Source of the DNA: Kagunavirus BCH953P1
Strand: one strand, 5' to 3'
DNA: 44,622 nt
Sequence record: OZ035754.1
Below, in pieces: positions 26,750 to 44,622 of the stretch; position 1 is the stretch's first letter; every line of letters begins with the position of its first letter. The notes beneath the pieces are model-generated. The model saw only the letters and a program-made list of their open reading frames with translations, was not told the DNA's origin and made no database searches. A program made the translations under genes and the position numbers.

Positions 26750-26831
26750 AATATGCACCCCTCCCGTTTCGTATGCTCAATCCCGCATCGCGGACAGATT
26801 CGACAGTCTTCTTCATAGACCCAGTAAATTT

Positions 26832-29154: not shown

Positions 29155-29170
29155 TATTTTCGACCCTTAG

Positions 29171-29194
29171 TAAAAAGGCCCAATGAAGGGCCTT
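29171..29194 (-). terminator. rho-independent terminator after SSB-like gene (minus strand aaggccc-tcatt-gggcctt then TTTTT)
   Basis: Seen directly between 29214 and 29154. Confidence 0.5.
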
Positions 29195-29213
29195 AGTTAA
29201 ATTGATTCGGATA

Positions 29214-29837: not shown

Positions 29838-29890
29838 CGTGATTTCTCGCTTTTCAGTTTACTCCGGGAACTGCCCGGCCAGTGATTAGA

Positions 29891-29919
29891 ACTATAATAG
29901 CTAACTATTCAGGTGTCAA
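29891..29919 (-). promoter_or_regulatory. sigma70-type promoter P4 (TTGACA-N17-TATAGT), A-family
   Basis: On minus strand TTGACACCTGAATAGTTAGCTATTATAGT in the intergenic gap upstream of 29214..29837. Confidence 0.6.
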
Positions 29920-29923
29920 CACT

Positions 29924-30415
29924 TTATTTGCCGTGATTTTCGTGGAAACCGTACTTAACCTCTGCGGCCTTTCGCGCTGCTATTGCGCCGTCGATAGTTT
30001 CAAAACGTCCGAGATGAATTAGTTTCTTCTCAACTTTTATCTCAGCTCGCCATTTGCCGCGGGTTTTATCGAAACTAACACCCGTCACCCCTGACGTGTT
30101 GTTGCGGGCTAAAGATAAATTACGGCTGTTCTCTTTTCGGGTTGTTTTCCTTAAATTAGAAAGAAGATTATTTTCCCGATTATGGTCAATATGGTCTATC
30201 TCCTCTCCAGGTTGAAGTTTATTTTCAGGGTTCATCATATCCCATATAATTCTATGCGCCAGAAATGTCCTTCCACGTAAACGTACGCACACATAGCCCC
30301 AATTACGGACAGACGCGACCTCGCTCCCAGCGGGTGCACGATTGCTGTTAGTTACGCGCCAATACAACTTACCGGTATTGGTATCATACCTAAAATAATC
30401 TTCCCATTTAATCAT
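29924..30415 (-). CDS. HNH homing endonuclease with AP2 DNA-binding domain (copy 1)
   Basis: HNH motif EIDHIDHNRENN; AP2-like SGVTGVSFDKTRGKWRAEI; start at internal ATG 30415 in ATGA overlap with exonuclease stop. Confidence 0.75.
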   Translation of the reverse strand: MIKWEDYFRYDTNTGKLYWRVTNSNRAPAGSEVASVRNWGYVCVRLRGRTFLAHRIIWDMMNPENKLQPGEEIDHIDHNRENNLLSNLRKTTRKENSRNLSLARNNTSGVTGVSFDKTRGKWRAEIKVEKKLIHLGRFETIDGAIAARKAAEVKYGFHENHGK

Positions 30416-31653: not shown

Positions 31654-32144
31654 CTTTTAACCCCATGATTTTTGTGGAACCCGTAAATCTCTTCTGCTTT
31701 CTTTCTAACGTTTACCGCATCGTCGAAGCTGTCGAAGTATCCTAAATGCTTCAATACCTTGTTTATTTTTATACTTGCCCGCCATCTACCGCGCCTACGG
31801 CACCATGAAACTCCGGTCACACCTGACGTATTTAGCGACGACATTCCAGAATTACGCCGGTTGCCTAGACTGTCAACTTTACGAAGATTAGATATGCGAT
31901 TATTCCTTCTGTCATGGTCTATATGGTCAATCTGGTCGCCGCTACTTAAAACATCATTAGGATTACAAAGTTCCCATATAACACGGTGCACTTTATAGAC
32001 CTTACCTAACACTTGTACCTGTTTATAGCCGTGAACATCATTCGACCCCGCCTCTTGGCCTACCTTTACCTTATCCGAAGGGCTTATCTTCCAAAATAAT
32101 TTACCGGTATCAGGGTCATAGTCAAAAACTTCATGCCAATTCAT
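31650..32144 (-). CDS. HNH homing endonuclease with AP2 domain (copy 2, paralog)
   Basis: HNH motif QIDHIDHDRRNN; AP2-like SGVTGVSWCRRRGRWRASI; ATGA overlaps at both ends. Confidence 0.75.
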   Translation of the reverse strand: MNWHEVFDYDPDTGKLFWKISPSDKVKVGQEAGSNDVHGYKQVQVLGKVYKVHRVIWELCNPNDVLSSGDQIDHIDHDRRNNRISNLRKVDSLGNRRNSGMSSLNTSGVTGVSWCRRRGRWRASIKINKVLKHLGYFDSFDDAVNVRKKAEEIYGFHKNHGVKR

Positions 32145-32413
32145 ACTCTGTTCTCCCACTGGTCGATTAAATGTCTGGTCCGGTGATGACAATGCATAGC
32201 CCAGCCATACATCGACTCGAAGACATAAAAGTCAGGCTTGGCGAATGTCGTGCGCTTAATCTGCGACAAGTGACGGCCTATATCTTTAGGCCGTGGCACT
32301 TTGCCTAAGTACGCCATCTCTTCCATCTGGTGCGCACCGGATGGCGCACGCAATAGCCATAGCGCCTCTGTGCTATCCCGCCGGTCTACGGCGCGGTAGA
32401 GTTGGTAAATCAT
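32141..32413 (-). CDS. hypothetical protein (90 aa)
   Basis: Track ORF. Confidence 0.5.
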   Translation of the reverse strand: MIYQLYRAVDRRDSTEALWLLRAPSGAHQMEEMAYLGKVPRPKDIGRHLSQIKRTTFAKPDFYVFESMYGWAMHCHHRTRHLIDQWENRV

Positions 32414-32456
32414 AATTCCGACCCTCAGTTAAAGCGGCCCGAAGGCCGCGGGATAG

Positions 32457-32975
32457 TTATTCTTCTTCGAAATACTTGTTCTTGATTGCTGTCAGGCGCT
32501 CCAGATACTCAGCCAGGTCTTCGTCTTTAATCGCAGCAATCTTCATCTTCTTACCGGTAAACTCTTCCAGCAGTTCGTCAGAATCGTCGCATGCGGCATC
32601 GCTTGGGCCTTCGTTAATCGCATCGTCGATGGCCTGAATCTGGTTACGAAGAGACTGGTAATCGACTTCTTCTTTATCTTCTTCCGGTTCTGGCGCAGGT
32701 TCCTCTACTTTAGCTTTACGCGGCTTGCGTTTCGGCTTCTCTTCTTCTGCCGGTTTAGTGTCAACTACGTCTTCACCCTCGACCGGGATTTCTTTTGTTT
32801 CTTCTTTTACAACAGTAGGCGTGATTGTTGCAGTTTCTGCGACACCACTGTCGACGTCTTTACCATATGGCGCCGTGATAGCCTTCGGCAGTTCAGTACG
32901 GCGTGCACTGTTCGCAGCAATCAGTTCATGTGCAACTACGAAACGTTCCAGTAATTTTAAGAATTGGTCTAACAT
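32457..32975 (-). CDS. hypothetical acidic protein (172 aa)
   Basis: Track ORF; highly charged central region; first gene downstream of P5. Confidence 0.5.
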   Translation of the reverse strand: MLDQFLKLLERFVVAHELIAANSARRTELPKAITAPYGKDVDSGVAETATITPTVVKEETKEIPVEGEDVVDTKPAEEEKPKRKPRKAKVEEPAPEPEEDKEEVDYQSLRNQIQAIDDAINEGPSDAACDDSDELLEEFTGKKMKIAAIKDEDLAEYLERLTAIKNKYFEEE

Positions 32976-33006
32976 TTGTTTCTCTCCTCTCGTTTGGTAT
33001 GGGCTA

Positions 33007-33035
33007 ACTATAATAGCGAACTATTCACTTGTCAA
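33007..33035 (-). promoter_or_regulatory. sigma70-type promoter P5 (TTGACA-N17-TATAGT), A-family
   Basis: On minus strand TTGACAAGTGAATAGTTCGCTATTATAGT; perfect -35. Confidence 0.6.
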
Positions 33036-33045
33036 TGGGCTTTTC

Positions 33046-33068
33046 TAAAATAATTAATATGGTACTAT
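33046..33068 (+). promoter_or_regulatory. promoter-like element for the HTH gene (B-family -10 block GGTACTATTCAC without a recognisable -35)
   Basis: TACTAT at 33063..33068 with the same flanks as P1/P2/P6; divergent from P5. Confidence 0.4.
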
Positions 33069-33099
33069 TCACATATCAACTGACTAAGGAGTAATTGAC

Positions 33100-33315
33100 A
33101 TGCAACCATCTGAACTAGGCATCCGTGTAGAACAGCGCCGTAAAGAACTCGGCATTTCCCAACGCCGTCTGGCTGTCCTGGCCGGTGTTTCCCAGGGCGC
33201 GATTAACCAGCTGGCACTCGGTGTAACTAAGGACGTCCGCCCGTCGACGTTGTTTAAGCTGGCGGAAGTGCTGCAAGTAGACGCCAAGTGGCTGGCGTTC
33301 GGTGAAGGGGCTTAA
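33100..33315 (+). CDS. XRE-family helix-turn-helix transcriptional regulator (Cro/CI-like)
   Basis: 71 aa; HTH ISQRRLAVLAGVSQGAINQL; SD AAGGAG; opposite orientation to flanking genes. Confidence 0.75.
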   Translation: MQPSELGIRVEQRRKELGISQRRLAVLAGVSQGAINQLALGVTKDVRPSTLFKLAEVLQVDAKWLAFGEGA

Positions 33316-33330
33316 CGCCCCTTTCTTTTT
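33306..33330 (+). terminator. rho-independent terminator (aggggc-ttaac-gcccct then tttcttttt)
   Basis: Seen directly, between convergent HTH and primase genes. Confidence 0.6.
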
Positions 33331-33332
33331 AC

Positions 33333-35573
33333 CTACTCCAAATCCTCCTCTGTCACCACCAGCATTTCATTCGGTTCGTATATTGTCTTCGGCCTTAGTC
33401 TATCCCCTATTCTTTCAGGTATACGATATGTTCTCGGTACTACTTCGCCATTAGCGTCGCAGCCTAGCATCAACTCACCGTCTTTCAGCATTTTATCAAG
33501 ATGGGTGTTAGTCACAGAAAAGTCACCGGAACGGGCCACTATCTGCTGCTGGGTAAAACCGCGACCTGTATCATCTGACTGTTGCAGGTCTTCCAGTGCT
33601 GAAAGTATTGACTCCTTCCTTACTTCATCCCTGCCGCGTTTAACTTCTTCCTTTACTTTTTGTTTACCTTCGTTAGTTAACCCTTCTTCCCGCTCTTTCT
33701 CCTCGTCAGTTTTGAACGGCTCGAAACCCCACGGCATAAGCACAAGCGCCTTGTGCGGCTCCGGCAGGTCGAGGTTTACTATTGTGCCGTATTCCTCTGT
33801 GCTACCGAGGAACTCAACCGCGCGATACTCTTTCGGCGGAGGAGCTTCACGAAACTGTACAGACTCCAGCACCATACCAACCGTTTTCTGTTGAGGCCCG
33901 TGCTTAAATTTCGAATGGTATACGTTTATCTGGCGGTCGGTTGCACGTTCAATTGTCAGTTCCACGTCGACGCCCGCATACAGCGCCCCACTACCACGGG
34001 CTTTCTTTCCGCCCTTCGGCGTATGGTGGACGACGCCAACCGCAGCTTTAGTCGCGTCGCGTACTTCTTTCAGTATGGCGATAACTTTACCCATGCCAAT
34101 CGCCGTTGATGAACTGTTTTCGTCGAACTTATCAATCGTCAGGGCCAGCGTCTGGTTTAGGGTGTCGAACGCAACCATACCGATTGGCTCGTCGCCGGCG
34201 GTTTCACGCATCAACTTAATAAGGCTTTTCAGTTTGCCAACTTCGCCCATGTCGATGACATGTACATAATCTTTACCTTCCTCGCCGTATTTAGCCGCGA
34301 GTGCGTCAATACGTGTGCGTGTAGCTGCGCCGCCCTCACCGTCAATATAGAAATGGTGGCAACGCTGGGTATCCGCCCCTGCAAACCGGTATCCGGCGGC
34401 GCTCAGGTACATCATCCCCAGCGTATAGAACGATTTGTACGTGCCGGATTCCCCAACAATATCCCAGATACAATCTGACGGCATGTACCCCTCAACGACG
34501 AAATCAGCCTTTACCGGTTCCGGTAGCTCGTCCTCTTCTGAGTCATCATCGTCTTCCAGGTCGTCGAGGCTGCATGAAACAGATTCACGCGCACCCCATC
34601 CGATAGCCTCGGCGACTTCACTGAACGGCAGCCCGGTCGCATCACACGCGTATTTCCACACTTCTTTCGGTGACATGCCTTCGGTCGCCGCAATGTCGGT
34701 GTCGTGAATCATGGTTACGTTAGGTGCGGCGTAGCCCTCACGTGGGAAGCACAGCAGGAAGTCGTCCGGACGCGGTGTCGGGTCGCTGTAGTTTTCTGCA
34801 TGCTCTGGTGTGGCTGGCATCTTAAGGCCGCGTGGTGTCATAGCACCGCCGTACTCGAACGCCAACGCCTCAAAAGCGTCCGTAAACGCTGTGCGTAGTT
34901 CTTCCGGTATCTGGTAGTCAGATGCGCTGCTCACCTCGTAATCCGGGATGCCCTCCAGTAACTCGTCCGGGTCAATCAGGTCGTTACGGCGCGACCAGAT
35001 AACCTGCGAGCCGACCGGCGGCAGGTACATCGGCTGAGACAGAGTGAACCCGCTGCGGTCCGCACCCATGCCTTTGAAGAAGTGTTCCAACAATCCATGA
35101 CGAACGCGGATGATGTCACCGCCCTCAACCGTTCGGGCCAGCGGCATGACGACGCGAAAGCGCGGGGCTTCGTCTGTGTGTGATGCCGTGGTGTAGAGGC
35201 ACATGGCTTTACGGCTGCGCTTAACCAGGCGCACAGCTTCCTGATACTCTTCCAGGGTTGCGCTGTCGAAGTCCAGGTACGTCAGCGACGATTTGTTTAC
35301 AGACGCGTCGCAGCGGTAGAAGAAGCCCCGGCGCGCTTGCTTAAAGTCACCGGTTTCCGGGTCTTTTACGGTGCTGTGCGTAGAATCGCACGCGGCAGTA
35401 ATATAGCCCGGCGCGGTCTTCGGATTAATCCCGTCACGAACGGCATCGAGCGGCTGGATTAACTCTTTCAGGTCGTCCAGTGTTGCCGTGTGAGTGGTTC
35501 TGACGTTTATATCCTTTTTCTCTGCCCGCGCGTTGCGACGAGACCACGAGTAGGATAAAATTACATCGGACAT
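33333..35573 (-). CDS. DNA primase/helicase (RecA-like AAA_25-type ATPase domain in C-terminal half)
   Basis: 746 aa; Walker A-like VGESGTYKS, Walker B-like region; N-terminal half unassigned (primase-like by position). Confidence 0.6.
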   Translation of the reverse strand: MSDVILSYSWSRRNARAEKKDINVRTTHTATLDDLKELIQPLDAVRDGINPKTAPGYITAACDSTHSTVKDPETGDFKQARRGFFYRCDASVNKSSLTYLDFDSATLEEYQEAVRLVKRSRKAMCLYTTASHTDEAPRFRVVMPLARTVEGGDIIRVRHGLLEHFFKGMGADRSGFTLSQPMYLPPVGSQVIWSRRNDLIDPDELLEGIPDYEVSSASDYQIPEELRTAFTDAFEALAFEYGGAMTPRGLKMPATPEHAENYSDPTPRPDDFLLCFPREGYAAPNVTMIHDTDIAATEGMSPKEVWKYACDATGLPFSEVAEAIGWGARESVSCSLDDLEDDDDSEEDELPEPVKADFVVEGYMPSDCIWDIVGESGTYKSFYTLGMMYLSAAGYRFAGADTQRCHHFYIDGEGGAATRTRIDALAAKYGEEGKDYVHVIDMGEVGKLKSLIKLMRETAGDEPIGMVAFDTLNQTLALTIDKFDENSSSTAIGMGKVIAILKEVRDATKAAVGVVHHTPKGGKKARGSGALYAGVDVELTIERATDRQINVYHSKFKHGPQQKTVGMVLESVQFREAPPPKEYRAVEFLGSTEEYGTIVNLDLPEPHKALVLMPWGFEPFKTDEEKEREEGLTNEGKQKVKEEVKRGRDEVRKESILSALEDLQQSDDTGRGFTQQQIVARSGDFSVTNTHLDKMLKDGELMLGCDANGEVVPRTYRIPERIGDRLRPKTIYEPNEMLVVTEEDLE

Positions 35574-35631
35574 ATTGTATATTCCTTCAGCAAGTAATTT
35601 GGCCTCGGCGCTCTAACGTCGGGGCTTTCTT

Positions 35632-35865
35632 TTATTCCAGGTCTTCTAAAGTAGCGGCCATTCCGCGAACTTCAGCAACAGCACTATATTTCCCACCAAC
35701 ATTTTTCACGACACCAGATTTAACCAGCACCTTCAACGACCCTTCAATAATGGCGGAACTATAGTACCTAAAATAACTACGGCGCAAGTCGATAACGCTG
35801 CACGACCCTTTTTTACGTGTTAACGAAACGACTGCCGTGAATACGCGTGACTGGAACTCGGTCAT
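35632..35865 (-). CDS. hypothetical protein (77 aa)
   Basis: Track ORF; C-terminus ends EDLE like two other proteins in this block. Confidence 0.5.
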   Translation of the reverse strand: MTEFQSRVFTAVVSLTRKKGSCSVIDLRRSYFRYYSSAIIEGSLKVLVKSGVVKNVGGKYSAVAEVRGMAATLEDLE

Positions 35866-36032
35866 TTCACATTCTCCTTAATCCACGCTTCCACTTTCTC
35901 CGGGTCAAACGTACCCGGCTGACGGCGGCCCATAATGCGGATACAACAATCCGGGAACTTCCCGCTCTTTAGCCAGTTATTCAGTGTGCGACGAGTAACC
36001 CCGATACGCTCGGCTACTTCATTCTGTGTCAT
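35862..36032 (-). CDS. small HTH DNA-binding protein (AlpA/excisionase-like fold), probable early regulator
   Basis: HTH MTQNEVAERIGVTRRTLNNW; start taken at internal ATG 36032 because the predicted promoter P9 lies at 36066..36093 (track ORF extends to 36065). Confidence 0.5.
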   Translation of the reverse strand: MTQNEVAERIGVTRRTLNNWLKSGKFPDCCIRIMGRRQPGTFDPEKVEAWIKENVK

Positions 36033-36065
36033 TCTCAAACCCTCAGTATCAGTTAACGAAACCAA

Positions 36066-36093
36066 GTATACATTGCGAATAATGGGAAATCAA
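36066..36093 (-). promoter_or_regulatory. candidate sigma70 promoter P9 (TTGATT-N16/17-TATACT) for the minus-strand replication operon
   Basis: Read on minus strand; moderate match. Confidence 0.35.
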
Positions 36094-36182
36094 ACATAAT
36101 CGCACCTATTGACATTATGAAAATCTTCGTTTAAGGTGCTTCTATATCTTAGTTACTTTGATTCCTGTTCACCTTGTAAGAA

Positions 36183-36216
36183 TGTTTAACCCGTGCGTCA
36201 AGCAAAGGGTTAAACA
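36183..36216. promoter_or_regulatory. inverted repeat tgtttaaccc / gggttaaaca (10-bp arms, 14-nt spacer) in the early control region
   Basis: Seen directly. Confidence 0.4.
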
Positions 36217-36370
36217 CAGGCTTACTGAACACGAGAATTATCATAACTTTCCTTCCTTAGTATCTCCGGTTGCCCTGGGCAAGCTATATTCTCATCAACG
36301 GCATATCTCTTAAGTATCTGATTTTCTTAATGTGCCGTAGATTCGCAACCGTAAAAATGTAACCCTTACC

Positions 36371-36394
36371 GGGCGGGCTTAAGGCCCGCCCTTT
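36371..36394 (+). terminator. GC-rich hairpin gggcgggc-ttaag-gcccgccc followed by TTT
   Basis: Seen directly, in intergenic region upstream of P6. Confidence 0.4.
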
Positions 36395-36464
36395 AGTTAC
36401 AAAGTAATAAGAATAAAGGCACGACCCTGCCTGAAGAATCACAACGGCAACGTAACTATTCTCT

Positions 36465-36493
36465 TGCACACCCCAACATAATAGGATACTATT
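36465..36493 (+). promoter_or_regulatory. sigma70-type promoter P6 (TTGCAC-N17-TACTAT), B-family
   Basis: TTGCACACCCCAACATAATAGGATACTAT; near-identical to P1/P2; 25 nt upstream of the first plus-strand early gene. Confidence 0.6.
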
Positions 36494-36517
36494 CACTTAT
36501 CGTAACGAGACAGAGGA

Positions 36518-36712
36518 GTGAGGGTTATGTTTAAGAAGGGTCAGTTGGTGAAGATTTTGGAGACCGGAGAGTTAGCGGTTATCTCATTTATGCACCACAG
36601 AGAATATGAGGTCTATTTTGCTAAATCTTTAACGGAGTCCTATCTCACCGTGCTATACGCGCAAGATATGAAACTCATCGGCAACAATTTTAAATTCAAA
36701 GGGGCGAAGTGA
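36518..36712 (+). CDS. hypothetical early protein (64 aa)
   Basis: Track ORF; SD GGAGTGAGGG. Confidence 0.5.
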   Translation: MRVMFKKGQLVKILETGELAVISFMHHREYEVYFAKSLTESYLTVLYAQDMKLIGNNFKFKGAK

Positions 36713-36912
36713 TGGAAGAATTATTTGAGGAACTGAAACATCATGAGTTCGAGGAGATATATTTTGTAGCTGGACGCTACGAGGCGCATTTAGTGGACGG
36801 GATTACACTTATTACGGTGGATAGCCTGCAAATGTTAAATAGCTTACGTGCGCTACGAACGGCATCGAATCATGATGCTCGTGCCGACGACTCTGAGGGA
36901 GGTTGCCGTTGA
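36712..36912 (+). CDS. hypothetical early protein (66 aa)
   Basis: Track ORF 36709..36912, start set at ATG overlapping upstream stop. Confidence 0.45.
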   Translation: MEELFEELKHHEFEEIYFVAGRYEAHLVDGITLITVDSLQMLNSLRALRTASNHDARADDSEGGCR

Positions 36913-37169
36913 TGAATAATACTGAACTGAAAACAGTAGCGGAATATAACCGTAAAATACGGGTCATGCGTCGTGGTGCGGGGCTGGAGCAGTTCTATAA
37001 CATGTGGCGCATTGCGACGCGCGACCCTGAGTTTCTTCAGACAGGTTATTATTCCATTAAAGGCATTATCCCGATTCGTGCACGTAAGGATTATGGTTGG
37101 GTTCGTGAGACCCCTAATCTTTTGTGGTGCTGGTATTGTGGTGAATTCTGGGTAAGGGTTAAGGACTGA
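36912..37169 (+). CDS. hypothetical early protein (85 aa)
   Basis: Track ORF 36903..37169, start set at ATG in TGATG overlap. Confidence 0.45.
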   Translation: MNNTELKTVAEYNRKIRVMRRGAGLEQFYNMWRIATRDPEFLQTGYYSIKGIIPIRARKDYGWVRETPNLLWCWYCGEFWVRVKD

Positions 37170-37240
37170 GTTATGAATAATTACCCGTTTATTTTAATCG
37201 TCAGCGTCGTTTATGTGGCGCACGTGTTGTGGGGTTTGGT

Positions 37241-37441
37241 ATGAGCAAGTGGATTAAGTGTAGTGAGCGGATGCCGCGCTGCGAGCCGGGTAGGTGGTCA
37301 AAAGATGTTATTGCACTAAGTGATACTGGGGAGGTGTTTCGTCTGGCCTGTCAAGGTGAATACTGGCAAAGAACGTCAGCGTTCGTTGAATCAGGTTCAG
37401 AAAAAGTGGTTGCATGGATGCCGTTCCCTGATGAGGACTAA
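37241..37441 (+). CDS. DUF551-like protein (copy 1)
   Basis: MSKWIKCSERMP...W..WMPFP pattern typical of the DUF551 phage family; paralog at 37592..37777. Confidence 0.55.
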   Translation: MSKWIKCSERMPRCEPGRWSKDVIALSDTGEVFRLACQGEYWQRTSAFVESGSEKVVAWMPFPDED

Positions 37442-37444
37442 GTT

Positions 37445-37588
37445 ATGAGAGAAGCATTTGAACGGTGGGCCGTCATCGAGGGTCTGCCGGTCAACAAGGG
37501 TTCAAAGAAAGAGTACCTGAACGTTAAGACCCGTCTCGCGTGGCGGGCGTGGAGAGCTGGTGTGCAAGCGGTTATGGACCGGGGGTGA
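37445..37588 (+). CDS. hypothetical small protein (47 aa)
   Basis: Read from sequence, fills the gap between the two DUF551 genes. Confidence 0.3.
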   Translation: MREAFERWAVIEGLPVNKGSKKEYLNVKTRLAWRAWRAGVQAVMDRG

Positions 37589-37591
37589 GAT

Positions 37592-37777
37592 ATGGGCGAG
37601 TGGATTATGTGTAGTGAACGGATGCCGGAGCCTTATGAATACGTTCTTGTAACTGATTGTTTTGTTGGCTGTGAGGTTATGCGTGTTAATTCAGATGGCT
37701 ACTGGGGGCCCGCAAAGAGTTTATATCACGGTGATATCACCCACTGGATGCCATTACCGGAGCCGCCAGAAGCGTGA
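37592..37777 (+). CDS. DUF551-like protein (copy 2)
   Basis: EWIMCSERMPEPYEYVLV...HWMPLPEPP. Confidence 0.55.
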   Translation: MGEWIMCSERMPEPYEYVLVTDCFVGCEVMRVNSDGYWGPAKSLYHGDITHWMPLPEPPEA

Positions 37778-37818
37778 TGTTATATTGTAACAATAGCTTG
37801 GGATTTTACTGAGTGACT

Positions 37819-37840
37819 TACGCTGCTGTGCAGCAGCGTA
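37819..37840. repeat. near-perfect palindrome TACGCTGCTG-tg-CAGCAGCGTA
   Basis: 10-bp perfect arms seen directly in a 227-bp intergenic region. Confidence 0.6.
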
Positions 37841-37944
37841 CAACTTTAACTTAGTGTCGTCAAAAGGTGACACTTTTCACCAAACGCAACAATCGAGGCG
37901 ACTATTGCAGGAGATGCAACAATACAAACACCAATAAAATTTAC

Positions 37945-37973
37945 TTGCACACTGAGATAGAATAGGCTACTGT
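37945..37973 (+). promoter_or_regulatory. sigma70-type promoter P7 (TTGCAC-N17-TACTGT), B-family
   Basis: TTGCACACTGAGATAGAATAGGCTACTGT followed by TCATTTACAC as in the other B-family copies. Confidence 0.5.
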
Positions 37974-38004
37974 TCATTTACACAAACGAGAGGAGAGATA
38001 GAAG

Positions 38005-38154
38005 ATGGTTACTTTGATGGTTATGGAGTTTGAAAACAGCGTAGCAACTTACCGTGAGATGACTATGGTGCAGGCGTATCACCTGGCATCAAACGGCAAC
38101 TTCTACAAGGCTCAAATCATCAACGAGTTCGGGGTAATTGACTATGAATTTTAA
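38005..38154 (+). CDS. hypothetical small protein (49 aa)
   Basis: Read from sequence; SD GAGGAGAG. Confidence 0.35.
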   Translation: MVTLMVMEFENSVATYREMTMVQAYHLASNGNFYKAQIINEFGVIDYEF

Positions 38155-38416
38155 CAGCTACACCGTTACCGTTGATTTTGAGGGGCTGGAGTTGCCCCTC
38201 CCCAACAACTACCGATATGTCACGCGCGACCGTAACGGGTTTATCCAGGGGTGGAGGAACAAACCGACAGATACTGAGTTCGGGATGTCGGGCGGCGAAG
38301 AGTTGCCGATCACTTTCGGGCATCAGAGTAGCAACGAAGAGCTTAAAACTGTGATTCGTAAGTATCGCCGCCGCGGTAACACTGGGCTTATAGCAATAAC
38401 AGGTGCTGTTGAATAG
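38144..38416 (+). CDS. hypothetical protein (90 aa)
   Basis: Track ORF 38138..38416; start at ATG 38144. Confidence 0.5.
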   Translation: MNFNSYTVTVDFEGLELPLPNNYRYVTRDRNGFIQGWRNKPTDTEFGMSGGEELPITFGHQSSNEELKTVIRKYRRRGNTGLIAITGAVE

Positions 38417-38434
38417 ACGAGAGGAGAGACAGAG

Positions 38435-38653
38435 ATGTTCCTGGAATGTAAATCCTATGATGGATATTGGGCGCTGACTAAAAATGACTTATACCACCTA
38501 AAAGAGGACGGCGACGAGAGCCGCTGCTACGTAATAGACGACAACGGCACTGAACTTGATGTCTATTACACCGGTTATGGCCGATGGGCGCTATCCGCTG
38601 ACGATGACTTTGTGTTCGAAGAATATAACGGAGAGGAATCAGAAGATGAGTAA
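38435..38653 (+). CDS. hypothetical small acidic protein (72 aa)
   Basis: Track ORF; SD GAGGAGAG; acidic C-terminus EESEDE. Confidence 0.5.
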   Translation: MFLECKSYDGYWALTKNDLYHLKEDGDESRCYVIDDNGTELDVYYTGYGRWALSADDDFVFEEYNGEESEDE

Positions 38654-39155
38654 CAAAAACGAAGTATTCGAGTACCTGATTGACCAGTTACGACAGCAGG
38701 TAACTAACAACCCGCACAAGCAACAGTGCGAAGACCTGGCGCATGAGGTGCAGTCGCTTAAGAATCAGTTACGTGATGCGTCGGCGCTGGTGGCTGAGTT
38801 GCAGGAAACAATAAAACTAATGAATGAGGACTTCGACAGTGTAACCAACCGCGGCGGCCCACTGCCTAAAGGGAAGAGCTACGTAGTAGGCGAACACGGA
38901 CCAGAGCAATCCGGTTGCCGTAAGGAAGATACTCAGGAATGCGAGCACTCTTGGATTATTATGCCTGGGTTGTTTCTCAGCGAAGGCAATACGAACAACG
39001 TTCCTGGTAGTGAGCTTTGCTCTAAATGTGGTAAACGTGAGTGGGACGACAAGGAATATAAACCGAAAAACGATACACAGGAGTGCGAGCATGAATGGGA
39101 ATATTATTACCCCGACGGTAGGCGTTGTACCAAATGCGGGGTGATAAACTTATGA
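38646..39155 (+). CDS. coiled-coil protein with two C-terminal zinc-ribbon-like repeats (QECEH-x-W ... C-x-KCG)
   Basis: Track ORF 38556..39155, start at internal ATG; repeats QECEHSW...CSKCGK and QECEHEW...CTKCG. Confidence 0.5.
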   Translation: MSNKNEVFEYLIDQLRQQVTNNPHKQQCEDLAHEVQSLKNQLRDASALVAELQETIKLMNEDFDSVTNRGGPLPKGKSYVVGEHGPEQSGCRKEDTQECEHSWIIMPGLFLSEGNTNNVPGSELCSKCGKREWDDKEYKPKNDTQECEHEWEYYYPDGRRCTKCGVINL

Positions 39156-39355
39156 CCAGCATCTTATTTATCTGGGTACTGTCAGCAGGCCAGATGCAAC
39201 TAGCGGCATCAGAAACGTTTTACTCGATGGAGGCGTGCCGGTCAGCGGCACGCGCCGCAGAGAACGCGCACTTCCTGTTTCAGGGCGACAAGCCAAACGA
39301 TTCAGAGGTACGCGCTATCTGCTCACCTAAGCGACTTGGTAAACAGGAGAAGTGA
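39152..39355 (+). CDS. hypothetical small protein with N-terminal signal-peptide-like segment
   Basis: ATGA overlap; MTSILFIWVLSAGQMQLAAS hydrophobic N-terminus. Confidence 0.4.
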   Translation: MTSILFIWVLSAGQMQLAASETFYSMEACRSAARAAENAHFLFQGDKPNDSEVRAICSPKRLGKQEK

Positions 39356-39357
39356 TT

Positions 39358-39537
39358 ATGGTGCAGAGGTACTTATTACAAGGCGGTTTAATCGGGCCGC
39401 ACGATGCGGGTGATTGGGTTGGCTACGAAGATTACGCGGAGCTGGAGCGCAAACTGCGTAACTTCGCCGACCAGGTATTGTACGCACCCTGTTCGAAAGT
39501 TACCGAAGAAATGGCCCGCGAGATTCTCGGAATATGA
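39358..39537 (+). CDS. hypothetical protein (59 aa)
   Basis: Track ORF 39352..39537. Confidence 0.45.
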   Translation: MVQRYLLQGGLIGPHDAGDWVGYEDYAELERKLRNFADQVLYAPCSKVTEEMAREILGI

Positions 39538-39827
39538 GCCTCGCAACTGACATCCTGAAACGAAGCGGCCTTGCGCCGCTGTCACCGAGAGCTAAAACAC
39601 AGATATACAAGCGCCGGGGTAATGCGCTGTTCCCTGAGATTCAGGCCCGACGCAAGGCTATCCGCGCCTGTGGATTCCAGAACGGGAAGGCCGTGAATCT
39701 CGGTGAGTTCAAAACACAGGAACGCGCAGCAATCGCTAATCGGTTATTTAATTACTGGAAATCGCTGGGGTACGATGATATTCCAACGAAACCGCAGAGA
39801 CGACAATACATCTGGAGACATAAATGA
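39534..39827 (+). CDS. hypothetical basic protein (97 aa)
   Basis: Track ORF, ATGA overlap. Confidence 0.5.
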   Translation: MSLATDILKRSGLAPLSPRAKTQIYKRRGNALFPEIQARRKAIRACGFQNGKAVNLGEFKTQERAAIANRLFNYWKSLGYDDIPTKPQRRQYIWRHK

Positions 39828-40264
39828 CTACAATCGCGTTTGACGGAAAGACAATGGCCTGCGACACCCGTGTTGTGTGCGGAAGTAACTGCTACAACAC
39901 TGACACAAAGATATACGAGAATGATTTTGCTGTTATTGGGGTGGCTGGTGATGCTGGAGTAGGGGCTATGCTTATCGATTGCTCTGGTATTCTTCTGGCA
40001 AAGCACTATGACTTCGATTTCGAAGCTCTGGTGTTCGTGAAAGACACAGAAAAGGTGTACAAAGTTGCGTTTTATAAATCATGGGATTGCGCACTAAGTT
40101 CGGTTATCCCTGTTGCCGATGTGCGCGCTGCCGTAGGGTCCGGCGCCCCTTATGCACTGGCGGCTATGTATTTGGGTGAAACCGCAACACGTGCGATTAC
40201 TGTAGCCGCGCAATTCGACACTAACACTGGGGGCAAGGTTATTACCAAACAACTATTAAGATAA
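39824..40264 (+). CDS. HslV / proteasome beta-subunit-like Ntn-hydrolase fold protein (truncated relative to bacterial HslV)
   Basis: N-terminus MTTIAF (Thr after initiator Met), segment KIYENDFAVIGVAGDAGVG and GSGAPYALAAMYL resemble HslV conserved blocks (recalled from E. coli HslV, not searched). Confidence 0.5.
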   Translation: MTTIAFDGKTMACDTRVVCGSNCYNTDTKIYENDFAVIGVAGDAGVGAMLIDCSGILLAKHYDFDFEALVFVKDTEKVYKVAFYKSWDCALSSVIPVADVRAAVGSGAPYALAAMYLGETATRAITVAAQFDTNTGGKVITKQLLR

Positions 40265-40278
40265 TTCCTACCCGTGCT

Positions 40279-40318
40279 ATCCTCCAGTTACTGCATACTT
40301 AATACGCACCTGGAGGAT
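40279..40318 (+). promoter_or_regulatory. stem-loop atcctccag ... ctggaggat (9-bp stem, 22-nt loop) whose 3' arm forms the GGAGGA ribosome-binding site of the holin gene
   Basis: Seen directly; could occlude the RBS. Confidence 0.4.
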
Positions 40319-40323
40319 TCATC

Positions 40324-40632
40324 TTGGATAAATTTACTGAAACAGTGACAGGCTGGCTTCTCGCTGCCGCGCTAGCCGGAGGGGTAATCGGACTACGACA
40401 ACATAAGTCCGTTATTTCTGGCCCTATCGACGGATTCTGCTTTATCGCAATGGGCTTCACTTGCGCCGTATTTGGAGCACCTCTCGCAGCTCAATGGTTC
40501 GGTATCACGGGCGACCGTGAAATCGCGGGCCTGGGCTTCATTATCGCCGTTCTCTGGATGCCTATCTATTCCCGTCTCTCCGGTATCGTCGCCGGAGAAT
40601 ACATCGCACGTCGAGGAGGCCCAGATGAATGA
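40324..40632 (+). CDS. putative holin (membrane protein, TTG start)
   Basis: 102 aa with about three hydrophobic segments; GGAGGA 6 nt upstream of TTG; immediately upstream of endolysin. Confidence 0.5.
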   Translation: MDKFTETVTGWLLAAALAGGVIGLRQHKSVISGPIDGFCFIAMGFTCAVFGAPLAAQWFGITGDREIAGLGFIIAVLWMPIYSRLSGIVAGEYIARRGGPDE

Positions 40633-40897
40633 GTTATTCTGGTTCGGTGGTATGCTGGCAATCGGAGGCACATCGCTGTTTAATGTGTACCATCCGAGTA
40701 TTGACGACGGGCTATTTGGCCGGGTGCTCTATATCCTGACTGCTATCGTCTGCGCTGCCGGATGTATCCACCTGTTACAGGGCAGCATGTCGCCAACGCT
40801 GCCTGAGACATTAATCACATTAGTTGCGCTGCGCCAGATTCGCCAGGCGTGGCTGGCATACGGAGGACATAAGCGTGTCTCGAAACATTTCAGATAA
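40625..40897 (+). CDS. second small membrane protein of the lysis cassette (holin/antiholin-like)
   Basis: 90 aa, two hydrophobic segments; start at internal ATG of track ORF 40472..40897. Confidence 0.45.
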   Translation: MNELFWFGGMLAIGGTSLFNVYHPSIDDGLFGRVLYILTAIVCAAGCIHLLQGSMSPTLPETLITLVALRQIRQAWLAYGGHKRVSKHFR

Positions 40898-41363
40898 TGG
40901 ATTGCATTTCACCGCCGCGTTTGAGGGGTTCCGCGGAACTGCGTACCGCGCTACGCCGAACGAGAAGTACCTGACCATAGGCTACGGTCACTACGGACCG
41001 GACGTAACACCTGGCAAGACCATCACGCCAGGTCAGGGCCTCCTGTTACTGAATCGCGATATGGCTAAGGCCGTAGCTGCGGTTGATGCGGCGGCGCACC
41101 ATTCACTGACGCAGGCGCAGTTTGATGCTGTGTGCGACCTGGTCTATAACGCGGGTGCTGGTGTGATTGCCGCTACTACCGGCACGGGCAAGGCGCTGCG
41201 TTCTGGAGATGTTACGACACTGCGGGCCAAGCTGGCGCTGTTCATCAACCAGAACGGCAAACCGTTACTCGGCCTGCGTCGCCGTACCGCCGGTCGTCTG
41301 GCTCTGTTCGACGGCAAACCATGGCAAGAGGCAGAGGCTATCGGGCGCGCGGTGAAAGGTTGA
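40875..41363 (+). CDS. endolysin, T4/lambda-type lysozyme (glycoside hydrolase family 24)
   Basis: Catalytic-region motif FEGFRGTAY...TIGYGH; GTG start with GGAGGA 7 nt upstream (track ORF starts 40824). Confidence 0.75.
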   Translation: MSRNISDNGLHFTAAFEGFRGTAYRATPNEKYLTIGYGHYGPDVTPGKTITPGQGLLLLNRDMAKAVAAVDAAAHHSLTQAQFDAVCDLVYNAGAGVIAATTGTGKALRSGDVTTLRAKLALFINQNGKPLLGLRRRTAGRLALFDGKPWQEAEAIGRAVKG

Positions 41364-41427
41364 CACCTGAGACTAATCCGACGATACTTAAATCACCTCC
41401 TGCTCCATCCCTCTACTCTCCAGTTTT

Positions 41428-41460
41428 ATCCCGGCCCTGACCCAGCCGGGATTTTTTTTT
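41428..41460 (+). terminator. rho-independent terminator (atcccggc-loop-gccgggat then T9)
   Basis: GC stem followed by nine T, seen directly after the endolysin gene. Confidence 0.75.
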
Positions 41461-41482
41461 ATCTATTTTCTGCAATGACTAG

Positions 41483-41511
41483 TTGACTATTACTCTCACA
41501 CCAATTATATT
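41483..41511 (+). promoter_or_regulatory. sigma70 promoter P8 (TTGACT-N17-TATATT)
   Basis: Strong consensus match, directly after the terminator and about 35 nt upstream of 41545. Confidence 0.55.
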
Positions 41512-41544
41512 TACTCCATCGACAACGAGAACGGAGTAGAGAAG

Positions 41545-41793
41545 ATGAGTAACGTATCGACGATAGAAATAACCGAGGAACTTGAAGCTAAATGCATCGC
41601 ATGGACTATGGATAACGACCCGGTTGCTATGCGTAAATTTCCAATGAAAATCACGGATACCGAGGCATTCAAAGACGCACAACTGATGGCACGTATCGCC
41701 GTTAGTAACCTGAGCAACAGCATTCCGGCAGATGCGTTCTGGTTCGCCGCGATGCAGACACTGAAAGCAGCTTATGCAGGAGAGAAGAAATGA
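41545..41793 (+). CDS. hypothetical protein (82 aa)
   Basis: Track ORF; SD GGAGTAGAGAAG. Confidence 0.5.
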   Translation: MSNVSTIEITEELEAKCIAWTMDNDPVAMRKFPMKITDTEAFKDAQLMARIAVSNLSNSIPADAFWFAAMQTLKAAYAGEKK

Positions 41794-41954
41794 TTAAGTT
41801 AGCTACTGATTTAGTCCCTGGCGATGTTCTATTCATAGATAACCGCGACGGCGGGTATTTTGTGGAGGTTAAACGCGTATTCGAGGACTCGGGTATTTTA
41901 GTTGTTAACGGTGACATTGTATTCCTGACTACCGATTATGTTGAGGTTAAGTGA
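41790..41954 (+). CDS. hypothetical small protein (54 aa), paralog of 42109..42279
   Basis: Read from sequence; ATGA overlap; shares L..D...GD...ID...GGY.VEVKR...D......V.......T.DYVEV pattern with the paralog. Confidence 0.4.
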   Translation: MIKLATDLVPGDVLFIDNRDGGYFVEVKRVFEDSGILVVNGDIVFLTTDYVEVK

Positions 41955-42112
41955 TGAGCGAACAAGGCCCGGCAAGCCGACCATTACGCGTAGGCCGTAA
42001 AGTTAGTCACACCCCGTTCCCGACACGCGAGGAACTGATGAAACGCAACAGTTTCCCGGGGCCGGACAAGAACAAGTATCTCAATCGCATGTGGGGAGAG
42101 CGTAAAGTATGA
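41954..42112 (+). CDS. hypothetical small protein (52 aa)
   Basis: Read from sequence; overlaps both neighbours. Confidence 0.3.
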   Translation: MSEQGPASRPLRVGRKVSHTPFPTREELMKRNSFPGPDKNKYLNRMWGERKV

Positions 42113-42279
42113 AAAAGTTAATTGCAGATGTTGAGCTGGGCGATGTTATCCGTATCGATGACGGCTACGGCGGCTACGATGTAGAGGTGAAGCGAATCGA
42201 TTGGGATTCTATGCTGCCGTTTGTCACTATTAATCGTGAAATCATGTTCGCCAAAACTGATTTAGTAGAGGTTCGATAA
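42109..42279 (+). CDS. hypothetical small protein (56 aa), paralog of 41790..41954
   Basis: Read from sequence. Confidence 0.4.
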   Translation: MKKLIADVELGDVIRIDDGYGGYDVEVKRIDWDSMLPFVTINREIMFAKTDLVEVR

Positions 42280-42503
42280 TGACTAACAACGAATACGAGA
42301 AACTTAGCGTCGAATCCGCGACTGGTGAATCTGAAATAGCGTGGATTGACGTCCACATCGAACACCACTTACGGCAGGTAGATAATCTTATGGAACGCCG
42401 CCGTGAACTGATTAACCGCTTCAACCTGAACAAGGGGTTCGCTATTTCTGATGATTTCGATGGAGATTACCGAAATGGCGATTTTTATGAGGGGGCTGAA
42501 TAA
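42279..42503 (+). CDS. hypothetical protein (74 aa)
   Basis: Track ORF. Confidence 0.5.
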   Translation: MTNNEYEKLSVESATGESEIAWIDVHIEHHLRQVDNLMERRRELINRFNLNKGFAISDDFDGDYRNGDFYEGAE

Positions 42504-42742
42504 TGCCTAAAATCACAATCGCATCGCTCGAGCGCCGTGTTCTGGTGCTTGAGTCGGAGAAACAGACGTTAGGCGGGCAACTGTCAATCAACGGTGAGTT
42601 TCAACTGGAGGCGTTTAAGTTGTTGCTTGATAAGTTGAAAGAGGGTGAAAAGCCTTGCGAGCATGATTACTATCTACATGTGGTTGGTGGGTTACATCGC
42701 GCCACGTGCATTAAGTGCGGTGAAGCGTATGGAGTTGCCTAA
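42503..42742 (+). CDS. hypothetical protein with zinc-ribbon-like motif (PCEH ... CIKCG)
   Basis: Track ORF; motif resembles the repeats in 38646..39155. Confidence 0.5.
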   Translation: MPKITIASLERRVLVLESEKQTLGGQLSINGEFQLEAFKLLLDKLKEGEKPCEHDYYLHVVGGLHRATCIKCGEAYGVA

Positions 42743-42911
42743 ACCAGTAGTTATCGATGGCGTACTGTGGAAACCCTACTCGGTTAACCACATCGACGCA
42801 GACGGGAAGAAGTTTAGCTTCTACATTTTTGCAATTAGCCGGGAGCACGCCGCCTGCGTGGTAGACGATATACGAGAAACGGCGTGGCTTGGTGATGAGA
42901 TAGTGGGGTAA
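42729..42911 (+). CDS. hypothetical protein (60 aa)
   Basis: Internal ATG of track ORF 42645..42911. Confidence 0.4.
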   Translation: MELPKPVVIDGVLWKPYSVNHIDADGKKFSFYIFAISREHAACVVDDIRETAWLGDEIVG

Positions 42912-42913
42912 TT

Positions 42914-43144
42914 ATGTTTCACGAACTGAAGATATTACCTGAGCATTTTGAGCCTGTTATGGCAGGAATCAAGCTGGCGGAACTTCGATTAAACGACCGC
43001 GACTTCAAGGAAGATGACACTCTGTGTCTGCGAGAATACGAAAACGGTGAATACACAGGCCGTATCGTTTACCGCCGCATCATTCATGTTGCGGACGTAG
43101 GGGTTTACCTACCCGGGTACGTGCTATTAAGTATGGAGGATTGA
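42914..43144 (+). CDS. ASCH-like (DUF3850-type) small protein
   Basis: 76 aa; ELKILPEHFEPVMAGIK..ELRLNDRDF..DDTLCLREY pattern typical of DUF3850. Confidence 0.5.
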   Translation: MFHELKILPEHFEPVMAGIKLAELRLNDRDFKEDDTLCLREYENGEYTGRIVYRRIIHVADVGVYLPGYVLLSMED

Positions 43145-43146
43145 TT

Positions 43147-43317
43147 ATGTTCAGCGACATCAACGCAGCAATCGAAGAGGCAATCTGGCGTCGTTACAAC
43201 GGCGAGCAACAGCGGCACTTCTGCCTGGTGCAACGCGGTAACATGATTGCCGTAGTGCAGGACCGCGATAACAAATATCCGAATGCGATGTGGACAACGA
43301 GGAATTTCTTAGAATGA
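43147..43317 (+). CDS. hypothetical small protein (56 aa)
   Basis: Read from sequence. Confidence 0.35.
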   Translation: MFSDINAAIEEAIWRRYNGEQQRHFCLVQRGNMIAVVQDRDNKYPNAMWTTRNFLE

Positions 43318-43550
43318 TTACCAGCATTCCGAACCTGATTAAAGAATTCGGCACGATGGCGGAGACATGCCGACAAACCGGCATCAACGAAATGACGATT
43401 GCGAAGTACAGCAAAGACGTGAACTGCGAGCGCCACGTAATTTATAACAACCGTCTGATGACGCACGTTAAAACAAGCCCGGTGTTATTCACGCGCCGGG
43501 GTATCACTAAAACTGAGCAACGCATCGCTAAAGAGGAGAGCGGAGAATGA
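43314..43550 (+). CDS. hypothetical protein with possible HTH (78 aa)
   Basis: Internal ATG of track ORF 43290..43550; ATGA overlap. Confidence 0.4.
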   Translation: MITSIPNLIKEFGTMAETCRQTGINEMTIAKYSKDVNCERHVIYNNRLMTHVKTSPVLFTRRGITKTEQRIAKEESGE

Positions 43551-43747
43551 GCGAAAAACTATTGTTACTTATGCTGCATACGCTTATTGATGACAACGGA
43601 CAGGTGGTATTCCAGTTTACCGGGCGAGATGACCTCCTAATCGACGTCTACGGTGGGACATTTGCTATTGGCGACGAGTTTGTAGAAAGAGGGGCTGCAT
43701 TCCAGTATCTAAGCGACAATTACGACGTGCTGGAAGATATTTGCTGA
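43547..43747 (+). CDS. hypothetical protein (66 aa)
   Basis: Track ORF, ATGA overlap. Confidence 0.5.
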   Translation: MSEKLLLLMLHTLIDDNGQVVFQFTGRDDLLIDVYGGTFAIGDEFVERGAAFQYLSDNYDVLEDIC

Positions 43748-43862
43748 TGAGACTACTAATCATCCCGAACGCCTGGGCTATCGCCGTAGCTAATGACCAT
43801 TACGGCGGCGACGGTAAAAGAGCACCGCGGCACCGCATATACAACTGATTGGAGAGTGAAAA

Positions 43863-44012
43863 ATGGTTGAATTCGATGATGTTTCATTTGAGGAGCGCAT
43901 AGACCGGGTTGTTTTAATAGTGTATTGGGGTTTTTACTCAAAAGCATTCGAAGGCGACACGAAAGCAGATTGCATAAATCAATTACTGCAATGGGCCGCA
44001 AGCCGAAAGTAA
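43863..44012 (+). CDS. hypothetical small protein (49 aa)
   Basis: Read from sequence; SD GGAGAGTGA. Confidence 0.3.
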   Translation: MVEFDDVSFEERIDRVVLIVYWGFYSKAFEGDTKADCINQLLQWAASRK

Positions 44013-44020
44013 CAACACCA

Positions 44021-44046
44021 AAAGCCCTCCGTAGAGGGCTTTTCTG
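44021..44046 (+). terminator. rho-independent terminator (aagccctc-cgta-gagggctt then ttctgt)
   Basis: Seen directly, closes the early plus-strand block before the terminase genes. Confidence 0.55.
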
Positions 44047-44139
44047 TACATCACGCCTAATCCCCTTATATAATCCATTTAGACGCGTAGGGCGCGTCTT
44101 ATGCGCTCTGATGGTCAGACGCATATGCAAGGGGATTCT

Positions 44140-44622
44140 ATGAAGCTGAAACTCAAGCAGCCATCGCCAGAGGTGGTGCAAGCTGCACATGAAGAAGCTG
44201 TTAGCGCGAACCGTCGCCGTAAACGACCGCGCGGTAAACAGAGCCTTTATCAATCGTCCCGTAATTCCGCCGCGTTGTGGGACCCGGATTATTGCGACGC
44301 GTTAATCGAGTTCTTCGACCGCACGTCATGGGAACTTGTGCCCACGTCTAAGGGTGACGAACGCCCGCTGATTCAGGATAAACCGCCGTCGCTAGCCCGC
44401 TTCGCCTTACATATTGGCGTCACTATCCCGATTATTAAGCTGTGGCTGCGCGAGATTCCCGCATTTGCAGAAGCCTGGGAGACAGCACAGGCACTGGAAG
44501 AGGCATACTTCACTGAGACAGGGGCCGCTGGCATCTCTGCTACGTTTGCCGCTGCGAAGCTGGGCCTGAATAAGAAAGAAGAATCGACTGGCGAGGGTTC
44601 TGAACCTATCGAGATTCGTTTC
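44140..44622 (+). CDS. terminase small subunit (N-terminal 161 codons; ORF runs off the window end and continues at 1..30)
   Basis: SD AAGGGGA before ATG 44140; HTH-like segment; no stop before window end; in-phase continuation at window start ending in TAATG overlap with the large terminase. Confidence 0.65.
   Translation, partial: MKLKLKQPSPEVVQAAHEEAVSANRRRKRPRGKQSLYQSSRNSAALWDPDYCDALIEFFDRTSWELVPTSKGDERPLIQDKPPSLARFALHIGVTIPIIKLWLREIPAFAEAWETAQALEEAYFTETGAAGISATFAAAKLGLNKKEESTGEGSEPIEIRF

Follow-up and report, generated by a model that had tools for sequence, protein, structure and literature searches.

The two ends of the record OZ035754.1 raise the question of whether the open reading frame running off the right end forms one gene with the few codons at the left end, and what a gene split in this manner tells about the opening of the record and about the DNA packaged into the virion. 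The term window is used here for the whole stretch of DNA that was analysed (44,622 nt).

The terS gene across the record ends

An ATG at position 44140 opens a plus-strand frame that is free of stop codons up to the window end (44140..44622; 483 nt, codons 1-161 of the small terminase gene terS) and continues in phase from 44622 into positions 1..27, followed by a TAA stop at 28..30 (terS 3' part, 1..30; codons 162-170 plus stop). From position 1 it reads GTT AAG GCT GTT AAA CCG GGG GGC GAG TAA, and the stop overlaps the ATG of the downstream large terminase gene terL (30..32) by 1 nt (TAATG). This course of the frame, described in an earlier note on the same DNA, can be read directly from the sequence; the joined product comprises 170 aa. 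The in-frame stop nearest upstream is a TAG at 44080. Assignment of the start is slightly uncertain, since in-frame ATGs are also present at 44101 and 44125; of the three, the one at 44140 is preceded by the best Shine-Dalgarno sequence (AAGGGG, 44129-44134, 5-nt spacer) and is used by most homologues, the one at 44101 being the terS start in the RefSeq annotation of K1G. A minus-strand frame overlapping the terS start (43756..44253; 165 aa, TTG start) was rejected as a gene candidate: it lies opposite the conserved coding and leader region, and K1G, phage 26 and hz69, the relatives whose annotation was inspected, have no gene at its position.

The run-on of the frame by itself is weak evidence for a split gene, since nine further sense codons follow any join with a chance of (61/64)^9 ~0.65 and some frame will be 'in phase' whichever ends are joined. 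On this expectation of ~65% draws the view that the wrap is an artefact, i.e., that the ends are incomplete or misassembled and two ORF pieces were joined by chance only. It is contradicted by the base-for-base contiguity of the junction in related sequences. Phage 26 and phage hz69 contain an intact terS of 513 nt, and terL (1236 nt) follows with the identical 1-nt overlap; window positions 43851-44622 correspond to 15387-16158 of phage 26 and positions 1-2740 to 16159-18898, with zero bases lost or gained. Phage 26, hz69 and two IMG/VR contigs (L006 and L008) each have an internal counterpart of the 80-mer that spans the junction, without gaps and differing by 2-5 substitutions; TerS of these genomes likewise has 170 aa. 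The joined product matches PHROG 3064 ('terminase') over residues 1-166 of 170 (E 1.4e-71). With this external evidence, i.e., the full-length PHROG match, the intact relatives, the contiguous mapping and the junction 80-mer, the wrap is certain, and the artefact reading, refuted by the mapping onto phage 26 and by the 80-mer, keeps a vanishingly small probability. The earlier note was thus right that a small terminase ORF wraps the window ends, the gene being uninterrupted in four independent sequences and recognised by PHROG 3064 end to end. No terminal direct repeat of at least 8 nt was found between the two window ends.

The region preceding terS has several predicted elements. A terminator-like, G+C-rich hairpin followed by TTTTCT (44020..44043) lies upstream of the terS promoter and shows a compensatory change in Jerseyvirus-like loci (GCCCTC/GAGGGC to GCCCGC/GCGGGC). 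The promoter itself, putative and proposed from its consensus match only, is sigma-70-like (TGTACA-18-TATAAT, 44045..44074, plus strand; 10/12 consensus positions) and would start the late transcript near 44081; its TTTTCTGTACA is invariant in 38 unique sequences. Two conserved plus-strand hairpins occupy 44081..44124 (44081-44099 and 44101-44124) and are predicted from folding (RNA minimum free energy -23.6 kcal/mol, z -2.4) and covariation: across 17 distinct sequences, 99.7% of the cells are paired, with several G-U pairs and 2 compensatory pairs, the double-sided changes of which both stem from one lineage, so that independent support is thin. The 60 nt before the terS ATG, which include the two hairpins, are more conserved than the third codon positions of terS and form the most strongly conserved DNA seen in the scan for a pac site. 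Searches of this leader against Rfam gave no family match; an rsmX match on its opposite strand was sub-threshold (E 0.15, 21 bits vs a gathering score of 56) and was rejected. The double hairpin could represent a cis element of the late/packaging operon (RNA leader, antitermination or part of pac), possible roles being 5'-terminal mRNA stabilisation, put-like antitermination or a contribution to the pac region.

Terminase proteins and joint exchange of the terS tail and terL

Direct searches did not place the TerS protein in a described family. For TerS and 21 close homologues no Pfam match was obtained at E <= 10 beyond noise, NCBIfam gave no match for TerS, and phmmer of TerS against the PDB yielded noise only; the curated small terminase models (PF16677, PF20901 or NCBIfam) thus do not recognise the window protein. 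A profile search among 1.84 billion representative proteins, by contrast with these direct matches, retrieved 507 remote homologues. Among the 96 homologues that were aligned, PF16677 (GP3_package) matched 73 and PF20901 (Sf6_terminase) 32, while PHROG 3064 matched all 96 and phrog_309 ('terminase small subunit') 71, linking TerS by transitive profile homology to the P22 gp3/Sf6 gp1 superfamily. Direct profile scores against P22 gp3, Sf6 gp1 and T1 TerS are weak: Sf6 gp1 was the top match of the TerS profile in the PDB (E 0.017), and the likeness to the single T1 TerS sequence found by hhalign (32% identity over 60 columns, probability 1.4%) is not significant by itself and was discarded.

An AlphaFold2 model, calculated from the 161-aa right-end part with 22 close homologues, was of insufficient quality for fold comparisons (mean pLDDT 52, pTM 0.28); the helices predicted in this low-confidence model span residues 85-91, 96-105 and 107-127. 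TerS resembles P22 gp3 and Sf6 gp1 in size (140-170 aa), in the position of its gene directly upstream of terL and, tentatively, in a putative HTH-like segment followed by helices; it differs from them in lacking a direct Pfam match. In P22 and Sf6, pac is situated within terS or close to it. With 170 codons the window gene falls within the range of small terminases (~100-200 codons), and it directly precedes terL, to which it is translationally coupled via TAATG, an arrangement found identically in 51 related loci. The families of its homologues together with gene size, position and translational coupling establish the terS product, at the level of sequence comparison, as a divergent member of the small terminases of the P22 gp3/Sf6 gp1 kind.

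The terL gene (30..1265, plus strand) encodes a predicted large terminase of 411 aa, here termed allele A, assigned by Pfam, PHROG 2 and catalytic motifs. Both Pfam domains score above their gathering cutoffs (Terminase_6N, 27.6 bits vs 22; Terminase_6C, 23.1 bits vs 22.6), and TIGR01547 (PBSX family) matches with E 3.5e-13, which is under the cutoff of that model. Four TerL alleles (see below) have in common the Walker A residues G25/G27/G29/K30 (GxGxGK), the Walker B residues D118/E119 and the acidic residues D247, D297, D382 and D386 of the nuclease. When 10 reference TerLs were scored against a profile of the four alleles, which provides a ranking rather than a tree because the references are too divergent for reliable alignment, SPP1 G2P came first with 27 bits, followed by Sf6 gp2 (17), T4 gp17 (5.5), P22 gp2 (3.6) and P1 PacB (1.5); T7 gp19, T1 TerL, HK97 gp2 and Mu gp28 scored lowest, and lambda gpA was undetected. 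By this ranking, with its weak scores, the window TerL groups with headful rather than with cos or direct terminal repeat (DTR) packagers. Among PDB entries, the same profile had Sf6 gp2 as its top TerL match, with Sf6 gp2 and P74-26 TerL at E 0.02-0.03, while a single-sequence search gave only P-loop noise from PcrA and was set aside. The best-scoring characterised relatives are accordingly TerLs of the SPP1 G2P, Sf6 gp2 and PBSX types, i.e., of headful packagers. SPP1 G2P (422 aa) is similarly small and has the same architecture of ATPase and RNase H-like nuclease; all of them are distant from the window protein, as indicated by the 27 bits for SPP1, E 0.02 for Sf6 gp2 in the PDB and the TIGR01547 score below cutoff.

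Nucleotide identity to K1G changes within this locus. It amounts to 83-100% over most of 44026-44562, except for a variable patch at 44326-44382, is as low as ~25-70% in the segment 44563 to 1251 and reaches 97-100% again from 1252 onwards. The low-identity segment comprises the C-terminal tail of terS (44563..44622, plus strand) and, beyond the record ends, the remainder of this tail and nearly all of terL (1..1251, plus strand). The exchanged piece thus covers the last ~28 terS codons and essentially all of terL, and the cut of the window falls inside it.

The same cassette was surveyed in 54 loci (the window, K1G, phage 26, hz69 and 50 IMG/VR contigs), three of which lack a complete terL. 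The body of TerS, up to the residues FAAAKL, is 91-100% identical across all 54 loci and is followed by one of four tails, namely form A (...EPIEIRFVKAVKPGGE), form B (...TEIIFSVAEPVGKIVTTNMGEVEE), form C (...EPISEVTIKVVSGER) or form D (...NTSQNITVVIKKDTGE). These are paired with TerL alleles of 411, 416, 423 and 408 aa, respectively, which share 39-56% identity between alleles and >=88% within an allele. Tail and TerL agree in 51 of 51 loci (A-A 6, B-B 27, C-C 16, D-D 2; 0 discordant), a count that overstates the number of exchange events, the loci being phylogenetically non-independent. In P22, binding is between residues 140-162 of TerS and 1-58 of TerL, and in lambda the C-terminus of gpNu1 binds gpA (PMC9611059). 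Co-exchange of tail and terL agrees with this role of the C-terminal part of TerS. One may speculate that the last ~28 residues of Guernseyvirinae TerS act as a portable TerL-docking peptide that recombination exchanges together with terL, and, separately, that the hairpins at 44081-44124 are a new cis element; this proposal is tentative, and we consider it somewhat more likely to fail than to hold.

Genome map and opening of the record

Megablast retrieved 162 matching records, nearly all of them Escherichia or Salmonella Guernseyvirinae. The window shares identical first and last base positions with OZ035805 (Kagunavirus BCH953P1), and identity between the two is 99.9% at either end, 98-99.9% for the most part and 92-95% in two blocks. 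The window is collinear in its blocks with phage 26 and BCH953P1 and, from end to end, with the type phage K1G. Phage 26 (MZ832314) is opened inside the DNA polymerase gene, so that its ends fall at window positions 27141/27144; the window and phage 26 each span the other's ends, as expected from a circular map. Genes for head formation and packaging (terS, terL, portal, Mu-F-like head morphogenesis protein), for further structural proteins (scaffold, major head protein, tail protein, tape measure, J-like tail protein, tailspike) and for replication and lysis (DNA polymerase, helicase-primase, holin, endolysin) are all present. The portal protein gene (1278..2759, plus strand; PHROG 145, E 3e-147; Pfam DUF4055) is the site where nucleotide similarity to K1G resumes. 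The earlier note had taken the window for a whole genome with a circular map, and this view is borne out by collinearity with the circular K1G record, by phage 26 being opened elsewhere and by the complete gene set. Similarity to and collinearity with members of the genus, together with circular closure, identify the window as a complete unit-length Kagunavirus (Guernseyvirinae) genome, predicted to belong to a K1G-like lytic E. coli siphovirus.

K1G (NC_027993) has the same architecture and gene order, and ~34 kb of the 44.6 kb align at 74-97% nucleotide identity; its terS body is ~91% identical to that of the window at the protein level. As in the window, terS of K1G is split: the RefSeq entry is a circular record in which the gene is annotated as a join over the origin. 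K1G differs in being opened at the terL ATG, so that only 4 nt of its terS wrap, in its TerL, which is allele B (416 aa; 41% identity with the window protein) and comes with a different, longer TerS tail, and in its tailspike and several early genes. BCH953P1 (OZ035805), phage 26 and hz69 (ON556632) possess TerL allele A and the TerS tail of the window; phages 26 and hz69 are 84-94% identical to it in most blocks and less so in the tail genes, and hz69 was deposited on the other strand.

The position of the opening recurs in other records. Like the window, at least four further records from its ENA series, namely BCH953P1, LM02P1, PDP21P8 and LF7074P1, start exactly 29 nt ahead of the terL ATG, two of the records having unrelated sequence at that point. 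LF7074P1, which has TerL allele B and a different TerS tail, opens with GTAACAACGAATATGG..., unrelated to GTTAAGGCTGTTAAAC... of the window, and its cut is ~11 residues more distant from the conserved body of TerS. Since the constant offset from the terL ATG is kept across non-homologous sequence, which a biological cut would not do, the cut is a convention; the overlap of terS with terL (TAATG) places it within the 3' end of terS. Judged from these alignments, the opening of the window is the product of a gene-based rotation rule of the depositor and neither a physical end nor a pac site. Of the earlier claim that the sequence was 'linearised arbitrarily inside terS', the location inside terS stands, whereas the arbitrariness does not, given the -29 nt start in four other records.

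A genuine packaging-initiation (pac) cut at the window start, e.g., one determined by PhageTerm, would have precedents. In the RefSeq record of P22, gene 3 is joined (41461..225) with pac at 4..25, and in that of SPP1, gene 1 is joined (43878..422); both records are numbered from pac within terS, so that terS wraps the origin. The pac cleavage sites of P1 lie inside pacA, and a pac inside terS is thus the norm for these three phages. Against such an origin of the window start, the -29 offset also occurs in LF7074P1 despite the unrelated sequence there, a biological cut would be expected to follow the conserved recognition region rather than the terL start codon, and the cut is located in the most variable, exchanged section of terS. 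A pac cut at this position is therefore regarded as very unlikely, and the depositor's rotation rule is retained as the reason for the opening.

Packaging of the virion DNA

A gene that wraps the record ends demonstrates a circular map and implies nothing further on physical permutation of the virion DNA. In using the wrap as evidence for physical circular permutation, the earlier note went beyond what such a gene can tell. For the mode of packaging, the terminase families and experiments on relatives are informative instead. Serratia phage eta, which has the structural module in common, yields circular restriction maps that are unaltered by ligation, with no submolar band (PMC3918226). For Jerseyvirus K47, PhageTerm indicated headful packaging, the band in PFGE was broad and the EcoRV pattern circular (PMC10783031), and pac/headful calls by PhageTerm were also reported for Shashou, Sciku and Snoke (PMC6776780, PMC6753286, PMC6776784). 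The TerLs of K1G and K1H adjoin headful clades (PMC5582158). In case of Kagunavirus fBC-Eco01, PhageTerm found no termini (PMC9825357), which is compatible with permutation but is not positive evidence for it. The submolar pac fragment, suggested as a check in the earlier note, was missing from two relatives, eta and K47, that are permuted nevertheless, so that its absence would not refute headful packaging. A scan of terS for a pac signal, in the form of suppressed synonymous variation, was flat and revealed no clear stretch.

Transfer of these results to the window has a limit, since the relatives used in the experiments presumably have other TerL alleles, and alleles B, C and D are only ~40% (39-42%) identical to allele A; allele C, for instance, is carried by Golestan and by the Kenya Jerseyvirus records checked (K14, K24, K28). 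Virion DNA with fixed ends elsewhere in the genome, i.e., cos ends or short direct terminal repeats, could likewise result in a circular sequence after collapse of the repeats or joining of the cohesive ends, the wrapped gene proving the circular map and no more. Pointing in this direction, the record of phage 26 bears the note 'cohesive ends ... joined to make a circle' (beside 'circularly permutated'), and the generic text of the fBC-Eco01 paper has the terminase acting at cos (PMC9825357). The profiles of TerL and TerS, however, show no affinity for the cos and DTR references lambda, HK97 and T7, and fixed ends are at odds with the ligation-insensitive circular restriction patterns, the broad PFGE band and the PhageTerm headful calls of the relatives (PMC3918226, PMC10783031, PMC6776780, PMC6753286, PMC6776784). 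In public records and IMG/VR contigs of the group, terS is found at many positions and on both strands, and these records and metagenomic contigs open at many positions without a common end. Fixed ends are accordingly considered improbable, and headful packaging, by analogy with the TerS/TerL families and with the experiments on relatives, is likely for this phage. The explanation favoured overall, with good confidence, is a Kagunavirus genome with a circular map, a conventional cut that splits terS and a presumed headful mechanism.

In such a mechanism, TerS of the P22 gp3/Sf6 gp1 type would recognise concatemeric phage DNA via its conserved body and recruit the cognate TerL by its last ~28 residues. 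TerL, of the SPP1/Sf6/PBSX type, would cut near a pac region and package more than one genome length per head. Headful cutting of this kind would generate terminally redundant, circularly permuted virion DNA, which would be assembled as a circle without fixed ends.

The split terS is a bookkeeping effect of the opening of the record, ordinary for the genus, and does not represent a new biological feature; members of Kagunavirus and Jerseyvirus have already been described as circularly permuted headful packagers. For annotation, terS needs to be joined across the origin, as in the RefSeq records of K1G, P22 and SPP1, since gene prediction on the linear record will overlook or shorten it, and the first base of the record should not be taken as a physical terminus or pac site. 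If the last ~28 residues of TerS do serve as a docking peptide, natural domain swaps would map the TerS-TerL interface. The exchanged cassette predicts that terL is not swappable without the matching ~28-residue TerS tail, which may be of use in the engineering or rebooting of small siphoviruses.

Exchange of the terS tail together with terL

The last ~28 codons of the small terminase gene (terS, split across the window ends at 44140..44622 and 1..30) and the whole large terminase gene (terL, 30..1265) form a single exchanged cassette, occupying window positions 44563-44622 plus 1-1251. Comparison of the window with loci L006-L055 (IMG/VR contigs), K1G (L003) and phage 26 (L004) revealed four TerS tail alleles, each paired with one TerL allele (A to D), and this pairing was concordant in 51/51 loci. 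While the TerL alleles share only 39-56 % identity with one another, the TerS body, i.e., the conserved part preceding the tail, retains 91-100 % identity across the compared loci. The window carries the rare TerL allele A, found at ≥95 % identity in about 7 of 931 phage records. Four further Kagunavirus records of the same ENA series (OZ035805, OZ035819, OZ035783 and OZ035758) begin, like the window, precisely 29 nt before the terL ATG, regardless of the TerL allele carried.

A second, small mosaic patch lies within TerS itself (window 44326-44382, residues ~63-81). It occurs in three versions (ELVPT-SKGDERPLIQ vs EAMPTGAHGDYKAVIA vs EFELT-PKGEKRALMQ) and its version does not depend on which C-terminal tail allele is present.

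Elsewhere, neither K1G nor phage 26 shows nucleotide similarity to the window at positions 21243-23363 and about 36-39 kb. These regions correspond to the distal portion of the tailspike gene (21014-22960) and to a group of small early ORFs, and their divergence is an ordinary case of receptor-binding domains and early genes being swapped.

Endonuclease-like genes

In one allele-D genome (locus L032, IMG/VR UViG_2706796610, nt 937-1425), an extra ORF is inserted between terS and terL. Its 163-aa product is HNH or zinc-finger-like (motifs CPHCGK...H...C) and is probably a homing endonuclease, which could be a driver of the cassette exchange. K1G harbours a mobE-like homing endonuclease gene between head genes (7987-8736), whereas the window lacks it, window 7855-7917 corresponding to K1G 7931-8797. 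The DNA polymerase of the window (26953-29154, minus strand) has an additional PHROG match to the phrog_93 "endonuclease" family (E 8.5e-15), covering the central residues 445-538, where a nuclease-like segment may be inserted or embedded.

Putative promoter and leader of terS

Upstream of terS, a terminator-like hairpin (window 44020-44043), for which a compensatory change was observed in Jerseyvirus-like loci, is directly followed by a promoter-like site (44045-44074) composed of an invariant TTTTCTGTACA and a TATAAT-like box. The interval 44020-44074 looks like the border separating the packaging/late operon from the small-ORF operon upstream of it.

Two alternative in-frame starts of terS are present at 44101 and 44125. 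The former, ATG or GTG in all relatives, would add 13 residues and was chosen by the K1G RefSeq annotation and many gene callers; its ribosome-binding site is weaker than that of the ATG at 44140, and it is located within the second of two adjacent conserved hairpins (44081-44124). These hairpins reside in the terS leader, where the DNA of the region is best conserved, between the sigma-70-like promoter and the Shine-Dalgarno sequence. The pairing holds in 99.7 % of cells across 17 distinct sequences, two of the pairs having changed in a compensatory manner and several G-U pairs being present; a comparison with Rfam yielded no family match. Candidate roles of the leader are mRNA stabilisation, antitermination or service as pac.
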